Origin: an uncultured archaeon
Lineage (GTDB): Archaea; Asgardarchaeota; Heimdallarchaeia; Heimdallarchaeales; Heimdallarchaeaceae
Direction of reading: 5' to 3'
NCBI GenBank assembly: GCA_964549075.1
Contig: CAZJUB010000039.1
Location: 1-22,442, forward strand
Length of the DNA: 22,442 nucleotides
Shown here: in pieces, positions 9,010 to 10,846 of the stretch
Layout: each line of letters starts with the position of its first letter
Numbering within the stretch: position 1 is the stretch's first letter
Program-made: the position numbers and the translations under genes
The notes under the pieces: model-generated
The model's input: the letters and a program-made list of their open reading frames with translations, nothing else
What the model was told of the DNA's origin: nothing
Databases searched by the model: none

Positions 9010-9507
9010 CTAAGCTTTCTGTTTATCTATTCTTCCAGCAAAGAAGAAAAGAAGAGCACAGAGTAAACCACCAATTATACCTGCATAAAAACCAGTACCT
9101 AAACCATCGCTCCAAAGATCACTAATTTTACCTATATAAACATAGAAAAGTATTGTAATAAGAATGGTTAAAACGACAGCCCCAATTGATGCAAAGAAAC
9201 CACTCTTTTCTATTCTAGCATCAACTTCCTTAGATACTTTGAGAATAGGATAAAGCTGTTGCAAAGCAACTAATAGGATGTAAACGAACACAAGTCCAAG
9301 TAGAACAATAAGGAACATATCGAAACCAGGAGTGAAAGAGGTACCTAAACCAAAATCATACCCAGAAACACTACTATAGTAAGTTCCTTCGTACCACCAA
9401 GCAAATTCAAAAGCAAAATTGAGAATGGCACCAACTAAGCTGAGAATCATGATCCCAACATATAAGGCAGGTTTTGTATTTTCAGGAATTTCACGTTGTT
9501 CTGACAT
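9010..9507 (-). CDS. Hypothetical four-TM membrane protein (claudin-like topology)
   Basis: Four hydrophobic segments, a longer aromatic loop after TM1 (AWWY...YDFGL) and LGTGFYAG leading into TM4. TTTTTAAA lies 24-31 nt upstream of the ATG. Confidence 0.8.
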   Translation of the reverse strand: MSEQREIPENTKPALYVGIMILSLVGAILNFAFEFAWWYEGTYYSSVSGYDFGLGTSFTPGFDMFLIVLLGLVFVYILLVALQQLYPILKVSKEVDARIEKSGFFASIGAVVLTILITILFYVYIGKISDLWSDGLGTGFYAGIIGGLLCALLFFFAGRIDKQKA

Positions 9508-9599
9508 AAAGAAAAATAAACTAAAACTTGTTTAAAAATATATTCTCCTACCAAAAATACATAGTAAGAATAGAGAAGTAAAGACAATTAGAGAGTAAA

Positions 9600-9613
9600 C
9601 GAAAGTTTTATTA
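9600..9613 (+). promoter_or_regulatory. Candidate BRE plus TATA promoter of the tRNA gene
   Basis: CGAAAG immediately followed by TTTTATTA, about 45 nt upstream of the mature tRNA 5' end. Confidence 0.5.
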
Positions 9614-9673
9614 AAAAATATAGAACGAATGAGAAGTAGTAAAAAAATACTAATAAGTGGGCCCGTGGCTCAG

Positions 9674-9704
9674 AAAATTTTCACTGTGTGTGAAATTTGA
9701 GCTT
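9674..9704 (+). other. Non-canonical tRNA intron at position 15/16 (D-loop), 31 nt, strict hBHBh'
   Basis: Central helix GCTC(9668-71)/GAGC(9699-9702), 3-nt bulges AG|A and TT|T, inner hairpin AAATTTTCAC/GTGAAATTT and outer pairs TG/CA. Confidence 0.88.
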
Positions 9705-9727
9705 TCAGGTAGAGCAGCGGACTCTTA

Positions 9728-9758
9728 AATCATAGAGTTGCGACTTTATGATGAAAAA
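9728..9758 (+). other. Canonical-position (37/38) tRNA intron, 31 nt, relaxed BHB
   Basis: 10-bp hairpin ATCATAGAGT-TGCG-ACTTTATGAT. Removing it restores the 7-nt anticodon loop CTCTTAA. The central helix CTCT/GAAA has two C-A mismatches. Confidence 0.9.
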
Positions 9759-9916
9759 ATCCGTCGGTCGCCGGTTCAAATCCGGCCGGGCTCGCCAATT
9801 TCCTATATTTTTGAAAGCTAAAATAAATGATAAGATAAACACGCAATTTTCTTAACATTATGTTTCCCTCTAAACAAACAGCTATAAAATATAATTAAAA
9901 GATATTTCAACCCATT

Positions 9917-10846
9917 TTATATGCTCATTTTCTCAGCATATTCTCTCTCCCATTCTTTGATTAGATGTTTCTCCCAAGTGTCTGTGTCGATTAAAAGCTT
10001 GATAGTTTCTTCAAAATTTTTTCTTTCTTCAAAAATCTGAAACGCTTCATCTATTTCTATTCCTTCTTTATACAACCAATCATTACAAAGATCTGCAACA
10101 AAACCTGCAAAGATTCTATAAGCCGCCCTATGTTGCTTATTTTGAGAAATAACTACTGTAAACGCTTTCTTAATCTTCTGTACATATACTATGATATTCT
10201 CGCTTTCCAGAGTCTTTAATTCTCCAAGACCTATTGATTTACCTAAATCTAAAACAGCGGACATAAAAGCAGTTATCAAAGTTGCATCGTAAGGTAAAGA
10301 TAGAGTTAACATCAAAAACACTGGTTGACCTGTTTCTAAAGTAATAAGCAAATCAACATCTTGAATAACAAGAGGTTTATCTAGAGGACCATCATTATCT
10401 TGTTTTATAATATCTTTTCCAGAGCGGATGGTTCTTTTGTTAATAATTAAGTTTAGATTACGCATGAAATAGTAAATTCCTTCTTTCTCCTTCTCTAAGA
10501 ATTCTTCATCTTCTATCCATGGATTAGTCTCTATCATAACTTCTAAAGGTTGGAAATTATCTTGAAAATTCTTCTTAACTCTTTTTACGAGAGATTCATA
10601 AGTTCCTTTTTCTTTAACGATAGTAAGAATATAATCACTTTTCTTCTCACAAACAATTTCATTGTTTCCAAATTCAATTAGTTTAGGAGAACTTTCTCCA
10701 AATTCACCTATAATTGATGTAACTGCAGTAATGTAACTAATTACCTCTACATTCTTTTCTTCTGTTCCCCATTCTTCATCGTAGATTCTATAATATCTAC
10801 AGGATCCAGAGGTTTTCAGTACTAAAACTGCTTTTATCAATTTCAA
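9917..10846 (-). CDS. Protein with two tandem longin-like domains
   Basis: Two repeats of the longin pattern: IKAVLVLKTSGSCRYYR...ISYITAVTSIIGEF...LIEFGNNEIVCEK...LTIV, and DLLITLETGQPVF...DATLITAFMSAVLDLGKSIGLGELKTLESENIIVYVQ...TVVIS. TTG start. Confidence 0.7.
   Translation of the reverse strand: MKLIKAVLVLKTSGSCRYYRIYDEEWGTEEKNVEVISYITAVTSIIGEFGESSPKLIEFGNNEIVCEKKSDYILTIVKEKGTYESLVKRVKKNFQDNFQPLEVMIETNPWIEDEEFLEKEKEGIYYFMRNLNLIINKRTIRSGKDIIKQDNDGPLDKPLVIQDVDLLITLETGQPVFLMLTLSLPYDATLITAFMSAVLDLGKSIGLGELKTLESENIIVYVQKIKKAFTVVISQNKQHRAAYRIFAGFVADLCNDWLYKEGIEIDEAFQIFEERKNFEETIKLLIDTDTWEKHLIKEWEREYAEKMSI

Follow-up and report, generated by a model that had tools for sequence, protein, structure and literature searches.

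The tRNA-Lys(CTT) gene and its spliced product

The window analysed here is a stretch of 22,442 nt, contig C39 of the draft genome of an uncultured Heimdallarchaeaceae archaeon (genome G000), and it contains a tRNA-Lys(CTT) gene that is interrupted by two introns, intron 1 in the D-loop and intron 2 at the canonical site next to the anticodon (Table 1). The genome is a metagenome-assembled draft of 3.23 Mb in 217 contigs, with 89.7% completeness and 32% G+C. When the segments 9659-9673, 9705-9727 and 9759-9797 are joined in silico, a product of 77 nt is obtained, which ARAGORN calls as tRNA-Lys(ctt). It has an acceptor stem of 7 bp (one G-U), a D-stem of 4 bp, an anticodon stem of 5 bp (one G-U) and a T-stem of 5 bp, the conserved loop bases are intact, and it ends with the discriminator G and an encoded CCA. 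This is in agreement with an earlier note, made from the letters of this DNA, which had proposed a tRNA-Lys(CTT) with introns at 15/16 and 37/38, the same boundaries and a 77-nt cloverleaf.

The earlier note also expected that standard scans miss or mislabel such genes, as is observed here. In its default mode, ARAGORN finds no tRNA in the unspliced window, and with the -i option the gene is miscalled as tRNA-Ile(tat) with a 61-nt intron. At the gathering score, no Rfam family is found anywhere in the window, the tRNA model giving only a partial match (9700-9786, 26 bits, when compared with the 29-bit cut-off). A second Lys(CTT) gene is not found in G000 by DNA search and in the tRNA lists, and neither a Lys(TTT) nor a tRNA-Tyr gene is found in the assembly. 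Contigs of the sequencing runs X1 and X7, either of which may be the source sample, cover positions 9450-10000 with 0 differences, and the four DNA runs aligned to the gene cover it without differences and without intron-less joints. The relatives of the neighbouring TYW2/Trm5-like gene are found at eight loci, all annotated as Candidatus Heimdallarchaeota archaeon, which agrees with the view of the earlier note that this is a likely Asgard genome.

Table 1 Features of the tRNA-Lys(CTT) locus (window positions) and three further G000 tRNA genes with D-arm introns (contig positions). H, h' and h are the numbers of base pairs in the helices of the splicing motif.
Feature	Position	Strand	Basis and remarks
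Promoter-like element, A/T-rich (archaeal BRE/TATA type)	9602..9616	+	43-57 nt upstream of the tRNA; read from the sequence, putative function
Exon 1, tRNA positions 1-15 (acceptor 5' strand, U8, G9, D-stem 5' strand, A14, G15)	9659..9673	+	in silico cloverleaf, spliced orthologue alignment
Intron 1, 31 nt, D-loop site 15/16, strict hBHBh', member of the 31-nt family	9674..9704	+	motif counts, family matches, compensatory changes
GAGC in intron 1, 3' strand of the central helix of the motif	9699..9702	+	pairs with G10-C13 (9668-9671)
Exon 2, tRNA positions 16-37 (remainder of the D-loop, D-stem 3' strand, position 26, anticodon-stem 5' strand, CTT, A37)	9705..9727	+	cloverleaf, alignment
Intron 2, 31 nt, canonical 37/38 site, relaxed motif	9728..9758	+	motif counts
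Exon 3, tRNA positions 38-76 (A38, anticodon-stem 3' strand, variable loop, T-arm, acceptor 3' strand, discriminator G, CCA at 9795-9797)	9759..9797	+	cloverleaf, alignment
T5 run, likely transcription stop	9808..9812	+	read from the sequence, predicted
Initiator tRNA-Met	C104:4825-4934	-	intron 14/15, 32 nt; H 4, h' 6, h 0
tRNA-Asp	C50:8078-8186	-	intron 21/22, 31 nt; H 3, h' 6, h 2
Elongator tRNA-Met	C139:3960-4093	-	intron 23/24, 32 nt, plus 37/38 intron; H 4, h' 5, h 3

The splicing motifs of the two introns

The introns are compared with the motif known as bulge-helix-bulge (BHB), in which a helix is formed by the exon bases -6 to -3, counted at the 5' site, and the intron bases -6 to -3, counted at the 3' site, the bulge at the 5' cut consisting of two exon bases and one intron base, and the bulge at the 3' cut of two intron bases and one exon base. 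For intron 1, all four pairs of the central helix are Watson-Crick pairs, formed between 9668-9671 (G10-C13) and the GAGC at 9699-9702, and the bulges (3 nt each) are AG/A and UU/U, the slash marking the cut. The helix h' has 7 bp (one G-U), and the helix h has 2 bp, formed by G9 with the C at 9706 and U8 with the A at 9707. A central helix of 4 bp, with h and h' of at least 2 bp, defines the strict hBHBh' motif, and intron 1 has this motif, as the earlier note had read it, h being of minimal length. Removal of the intron at these bulges in silico restores a standard cloverleaf, whose D-loop has the length seen in the intron-less orthologues. When the intron is shuffled within fixed boundaries, a 4-bp central helix is obtained in 1,681 of 200,000 cases, together with an h' of at least 3 bp in 140, and together with an h' of at least 7 bp in 3. 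In the minimum free energy (MFE) fold of the precursor, the 5' strand of the D-stem is paired with intron 1. The GAGC of the intron therefore competes with the true D-stem, as the earlier note had also proposed, since G10-C13 are used by both helices.

Intron 1 is not a self-splicing group I or group II intron or a curated RNA family, as judged from the absence of any Rfam match at the gathering score. A length of 31 nt is far too short for a group I or group II intron. The possibility of a C/D-box guide RNA within intron 1 was considered by eye and rejected, the intron being too short at 31 nt and the G000 copy being without the box-like words.

Intron 2 fits the relaxed, not the strict, BHB motif, having an h' of 10 bp and an h that is the 5-bp anticodon stem. 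Runs of A are present at both of its ends, such that the sites 36/37 or 38/39 are equally possible by the letters alone, and a hand check finds that only at 37/38 do both cuts fall between the helices. Among the 37/38 introns of 14 orthologues, including this gene, nine have four central pairs, three have three and two have two. These introns are not all related to one another. The 37/38 intron of G000 is seen to resemble the 30-31-nt introns of G002, G003 and G018 (L006, L009, L011), and to be unlike the 22-nt intron of its nearest relatives by FEN1, G001 and G020, so that turnover seems to affect the canonical 37/38 intron as well.

The splicing endonuclease and the predicted splicing route

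Two EndA-family genes are present in G000, with PF01974 matches of 101.8 and 39.2 bits. The closest match of the 183-residue EndA is the catalytic subunit of Aeropyrum pernix (3P1Z_B, E 2.8e-37), with its K39 aligning with K44, a residue of the specificity loop in A. pernix, and the 180-residue paralogue is a divergent EndA-like protein. Judged from these two proteins, G000 appears to encode an (alpha-beta)2 EndA of broad specificity, in agreement with the earlier note, which had linked genes of this kind to broad-specificity splicing endonucleases. The A. pernix (alpha-beta)2 enzyme is reported to cut a D-loop BHB intron in vitro; its K44A variant has lost the D-loop cut, and transfer of the specificity loop into another EndA confers this ability (Hirata et al. 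2011, PMC3241643). Asgard archaea, a Heimdall genome included, are described as having (alpha-beta)2 EndA with an L1 loop, and tRNA-Glu of Methanopyrus kandleri as having a D-loop (20b/21) intron paired with a 37/38 intron (Kaneta et al. 2018, PMC5829648). The gene described here is like these cases in having a D-loop intron, which occurs there alone or beside the canonical one, together with a heterotetramer-type EndA, and the key lysine of the specificity loop (CSL, the L1 loop) is kept in the G000 catalytic subunit. Unlike these cases, which have been shown biochemically, it is known from sequence, and it differs further in that the site is 15/16 and that the central helix uses the entire 5' strand of the D-stem.

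In the predicted route, transcription of 9659-9797 would give a leader and a precursor of about 139 nt, from which both 31-nt introns would be removed by the archaeal protein pathway, EndA making the cuts and an RNA ligase joining the ends. The GAGC of intron 1 would serve as a decoy for the 3' strand of the D-stem and would, together with a hairpin of the intron, build the BHB with tRNA positions 8-15, and EndA would cut after G15 and before U16. As for the predicted order of removal, the real D-stem and the tRNA core would form only after intron 1 has been cut out and the exons ligated. The degenerate central helix of intron 2 would need the broad-specificity (alpha-beta)2 EndA. This predicted route is the textbook one for this type of EndA.

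The 15/16 intron among the Lys(CTT) orthologues

When 40 relatives are searched at the DNA level and the matches are aligned in spliced form, an intact Lys(CTT) gene is obtained for 19 further genomes of the genus. At least 11 congeners, as well as G000, have FEN1 on the same contig as tRNA-Lys(CTT), which shows that the locus is orthologous; in the window, FEN1 is about 5 kb from the tRNA. A survey of this kind had been proposed in the earlier note, and it identifies the 15/16 intron in only one of the 19 orthologues, that of G024, where it is accompanied by a 37/38 intron as in G000. The other 18 are without intron 1 and all have a D-loop of 9 nt, which is the length in the 15/16 spliced product. 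Two genes (G011, G012) have no intron, nine have only the 37/38 intron, one has a T-loop intron (G007, L030) and six have a different intron of 30-32 nt in the 3' strand of the D-stem, in three of the six together with a 37/38 intron. The 3' D-stem introns of these six congeners (L012, L014, L015, L017, L018, L019) look like one family.

Copies of intron 1 in four host tRNAs

Searching with a 69-nt query detects a second locus in G014, a tRNA-Lys(TTT) gene whose 31-nt intron is near-identical and is likewise at 15/16. With an exact pattern, the motif is found in 5 of the 83 genomes of the class, and with a covariance model of the D-arm and the intron in 6 of the 47 genomes of the order, in both searches all in this genus. 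A covariance model of the intron and the six bases upstream gives strong matches (E <=1e-10) in 9 of the 25 genus genomes, one in each; no genome of the 25 has two copies, and 16 are without a strong match. The remaining matches have E >=0.017, and none of the six that were inspected is in a tRNA gene. The exact pattern, which excludes the G000 variant, detects one stretch in a scan of metagenomes, a Lys(TTT) copy like that of G014, and none in viral contigs.

The hosts at the 15/16 site are Lys-CTT (G000, G024), Lys-TTT (G014 and the metagenome contig) and Tyr-GTA (G001, G016), and in Pro-GGG (G009, G011, G013, G018) the insertion is after G19 of the D-loop, so that four host tRNAs and two D-loop positions are used by the family. 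Once the 31 nt are removed, every host gene is recognised as a tRNA by ARAGORN. It names the four Pro genes tRNA-Ala(ggc), because their second intron is placed differently; a by-hand reading of the anticodon loop and the acceptor stem identifies these genes as Pro(GGG). In a non-carrier, G006, the tRNA-Pro(GGG) gene (L121, G006:C95, about 87675-87830, - strand) has an unrelated insertion in its D-loop, about 30 nt long and a few bases ahead of the family site.

The copies other than that of G000 share 24-30 of the 31 bases, also across host types, and the G000 copy shares 17-21 of 31 with them. Alike introns are thus present in at least two tRNA types, which is the similarity that marks a transposing tRNA-intron family of the Thermoproteales type. 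Only the G000 copy has a strict BHB motif, with four central pairs versus three elsewhere; the eight other copies of the genus and the metagenome copy have three central pairs and a G.A mismatch at G10, with an h' of 4-5 bp and an h of 0-2 bp. Six copies of the family align without gaps, and at three pairs of h' both partners are changed in G000 when compared with the remaining five copies, as compensatory changes. In this alignment, 83% of the cells are paired in register, when compared with 8-47% with the partner slid by one to three columns, and the covariation score is reached in 1 of 500 shuffles. The exon bases before the insertion are GCTCAG in three of the hosts and GCTTGG in Pro(GGG), and in every host the CTY of the exon can pair with the GAG of the intron.

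Filled and empty sites and the FEN1 tree

Filled and empty alleles of the same gene can be compared for several hosts. For Pro(GGG), the filled genes differ from the empty ones by exactly 31 nt: no duplication is present, the 5' exon abuts directly, and only one boundary is possible, the empty alleles of G014 and G024 being 98-100% identical to the filled ones when counted from the first base after the intron. For Lys(TTT), the empty alleles of G009, G011, G013, G018 and G024 are 98-100% identical to the filled allele of G014, and the upstream sequences are near-identical. For Tyr, the match in 19 genomes begins only at the first base that follows the intron, and the gene is filled in G001 and G016 alone. 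Each of G011, G014 and G024 has the intron in one host gene, with empty sites in the other hosts found. No feature of a mobile element is seen in the 40-70 nt of flanking sequence that were compared.

The relationships of the carriers are taken from a tree of a single protein, FEN1, which includes 24 of the 25 genus genomes (FEN1 is not matched in G016), with midpoint rooting and with 7 of its 21 inner branches open. The eight carriers that are placed are all in one clade of 12 species (support 87/83). One of its sub-clades (support 100/96) includes G000, G001 (Tyr) and the non-carriers G020 and G023. The other (support 100/99), in which the end branches are 0.005-0.028, includes G011 (Pro), G014 (Lys-TTT), G024 (Lys-CTT), G009, G013 and G018 (all Pro) and the non-carriers G006 and G010. 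For G011, G014 and G024 the end branches are as short as 0.005-0.010, and the intron is in three different genes. The occurrence of the intron in different genes of such very close species is read as movement between genes, and intron 1 probably belongs to a family that has changed its host gene. We read the distribution as at least three changes of host within the 12-species clade. Lys(CTT) 15/16 is perhaps the older site, because it is present in both sub-clades.

Weighing of the alternative explanations

The combined data make it very likely that 9659-9797 is a real two-intron tRNA-Lys(CTT) gene whose transcript would be spliced via the EndA pathway. Several observations weigh against this reading or narrow it. 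The precursor MFE fold (-56.4 kcal/mol, z = -4.9) has a continuous 8-bp helix across the 5' splice site, not the bulged BHB, the BHB conformations reaching only -41 to -43 kcal/mol, and the outer helix h of intron 1, with just 2 bp, is energetically costly in the nearest-neighbour model. In intron 2, only 2 of the 4 central pairs are formed, such that the strict 4-bp rule (positions 32-35) fails. The h' covariation separates the G000 lineage from the rest and is therefore one evolutionary event. With 89.7% completeness, the 'sole lysine tRNA gene' is the sole one found. All 22 of the listed runs that hold 9300-10300 are DNA, mostly salt-marsh metagenomes, and none is RNA, so that splicing is a prediction. 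Moreover, if the cuts of intron 1 are moved one base further in on each side (site 16/17, intron 9675-9703, 29 nt, D-loop of 11 nt), a 4-bp central helix is also formed, with an h' of 6 bp and an h of 3 bp, and ARAGORN still reads the product as tRNA-Lys(ctt). This register is very unlikely when the relatives are considered, as the D-loop of orthologues without the intron has 9 nt, not 11, the homologous introns all have 31 nt and align without gaps, the Pro(GGG) host fixes the 31-nt boundaries unambiguously and the G024 copy would, by eye, drop one central pair; the 15/16 site is chosen over 16/17 by this comparison. It is highly improbable that the gene is a decaying pseudogene, or has insertions that are not removed, with the lysine AAG codons being read by another tRNA. 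Such a state would be compatible with the listed runs being DNA only and with the incomplete assembly, but removal of the introns leaves all four stems, the CCA and the conserved bases of the loops intact, the G000 motif is the best of the family (four central pairs versus three), h' has compensatory changes, the locus is syntenic with that of the relatives and no other lysine tRNA gene is found in G000. A mis-joining of both 31-nt stretches during assembly is hardly conceivable, even for a metagenome-assembled draft of 217 contigs, in view of the identical X1 and X7 contigs (either of which may be the source) and of the same architecture at both sites in G024.

It is also possible to explain the distribution of the 31-nt family without movement, by an ancestor that had the intron in all four tRNA genes, followed by losses of all but one copy in each lineage, or by sorting of filled and empty alleles out of an ancestral population that was polymorphic. 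Archaeal tRNA genes are known to lose introns precisely, the carriers placed on the FEN1 tree are confined to one 12-species clade, and the occurrence of the Lys(CTT) 15/16 host in both sub-clades (G000, G024) fits an old residence. This explanation is nevertheless rather unlikely, as it requires many exact losses on very short branches, it must explain why 0 of the 25 genomes have two copies, and it has to accommodate empty alleles that, apart from the 31 nt, share 98-100% identity with their filled counterparts. If, as preferred here, the intron has moved between genes, a more specific picture can be proposed tentatively. In this picture, intron 1 would be a protein-less, single-copy BHB mini-intron that relocates conservatively, in a cut-and-paste-like manner, landing at an exon GCTYRG where its own GAG rebuilds the central helix, and it might have hopped in this way among Lys-CTT, Lys-TTT, Tyr-GTA and Pro-GGG in one genus of the Heimdall group.

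Other interrupted tRNA genes and neighbouring features

A rough census of G000, made by using ARAGORN with and without its intron mode, Rfam matches and a scan for T-arm and acceptor sequences, and excluding a Leu(TAA) gene with a run of N, gives a total of about 36 tRNA genes and, among them, about 15 with introns. Ranking of enumerated BHB motifs with ARAGORN is ambiguous, too many spliced variants being accepted, and the other interrupted genes were settled by hand. Three further genes with D-arm introns (Table 1) give cloverleaves after removal of the introns, and D-loop and D-stem introns are therefore ordinary in G000. The 3' part of the initiator tRNA-Met intron copies the 3' strand of the D-stem, which is the same design as in Lys intron 1. 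The tRNA-Asp 21/22 and elongator tRNA-Met 23/24 introns have, by eye, a common 17-nt core in which two positions differ; these would be a second intron family over two tRNA types, with both copies in one genome. A tRNA gene with a CAT anticodon (C132:909-1032, - strand), either Met or Ile2, has a 48-nt 37/38 intron and a T-loop that begins with A instead of TT.

Around the tRNA-Lys(CTT) gene, the 15-nt word at 9602..9616 recurs upstream of tRNA-Lys(TTT) genes in congeners. Other archaeal genes, besides FEN1, are encoded in the window. The open reading frame adjoining the tRNA (9917-10846, - strand) weakly matches the first of the longin domains of FUZ/MON1/HPS1, at 21.9 bits when compared with the 26.1-bit cut-off; a longin-type domain is of the eukaryote-like sort often reported for Asgard genomes.

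Relation to known systems and significance

In three Asgard genomes, 92-95% of the tRNA genes are reported to be interrupted, often at non-canonical sites, with extra introns detected by inspection of the structures (Valentin-Alvarado et al. 2024, PMC11291895). A recent preprint describes Asgard D-arm introns as being systematically missed by tRNAscan-SE, half of 541 distinct missed intervening sequences being in the D-arm; it also reports many and recent intron gains and (alpha-beta)2-type EndA in most genomes (Goswami et al. 2026, 10.64898/2026.10.13.758758). In view of these two reports, of the in vitro cutting of D-loop BHB introns by the A. pernix enzyme (PMC3241643) and of the at least three other D-arm-intron tRNA genes of G000, the suggestion in the earlier note that such a site is rare or little described does not hold. 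The introns studied here are like the published hidden Asgard introns in being short (the published median being 22-23 nt), in their D-arm-rich non-canonical sites, with several introns per gene, in being missed by standard finders, in their BHB-forming boundaries, in repeated gain and loss and in the (alpha-beta)2 EndA. The published work differs in its focal lineages, which, in these accounts, are Atabeyarchaeia, Jordiarchaeia and Freyarchaeia. In the preprint, within-genome families across tRNA types are given as 1.5% of 1,062 sequences (at 80% identity), versus 28.3% in Thermoproteales, and its closing remark is that 'how they arrive remains open' (10.64898/2026.10.13.758758). The preprint tested copying between tRNA genes only within genomes, and such a test could not see the 31-nt family, which has one copy per genome.

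Transposition of tRNA introns has been described for Thermoproteales (Fujishima et al. 2010, as cited in PMC4033280, PMC4090602 and 10.64898/2026.10.13.758758). The 31-nt family is like the introns of that order in that near-identical introns are present in different tRNAs and at more than one position, at BHB-capable sites and with no element-encoded protein. In Thermoproteales, as described in these sources, there are many copies per genome, whereas the 31-nt family has one per genome, with a host that differs between close species; the family is moreover an Asgard one, with exact filled and empty alleles in near-identical genes. In a Caldiarchaeum subterraneum population, the locus of tRNA-Thr(GGU) is reported to be heterogeneous, with a 1.8-kb element having a recombinase gene being implicated (Sugahara et al. 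2012, PMC3293823). Both cases provide a snapshot of recent intron gain from the comparison of close genomes. Unlike in the published account of C. subterraneum, no such element is seen here, and the 40-70 nt flanks of the compared alleles are near-identical. In the literature searched, no report was found of a tRNA-intron family switching its host gene between Asgard species, a point on which the supplements of the preprint may bear.

The gene itself belongs to a kind that has already been described, and what is new is the intron 1 family, with its varying hosts and exact empty sites. It is speculative that the 15/16 site bears on how the eukaryotic 37/38-only system arose, as the earlier note had proposed. 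The gene as such adds one well-supported example of those that are missed by default tRNA finders. The intron 1 family matters more, being a snapshot of intron gain and loss of the kind asked for by field reviews (PMC4033280), and it offers a defined substrate, enzyme and target word for bench tests. If the proposed relocation of this mini-intron is true, tRNA introns would be clearly seen to be mobile in Asgard archaea for the first time, and the family would provide a live system for studying how introns arrive, for example by reversal of the EndA and ligase reactions on RNA, followed by copying back into DNA.

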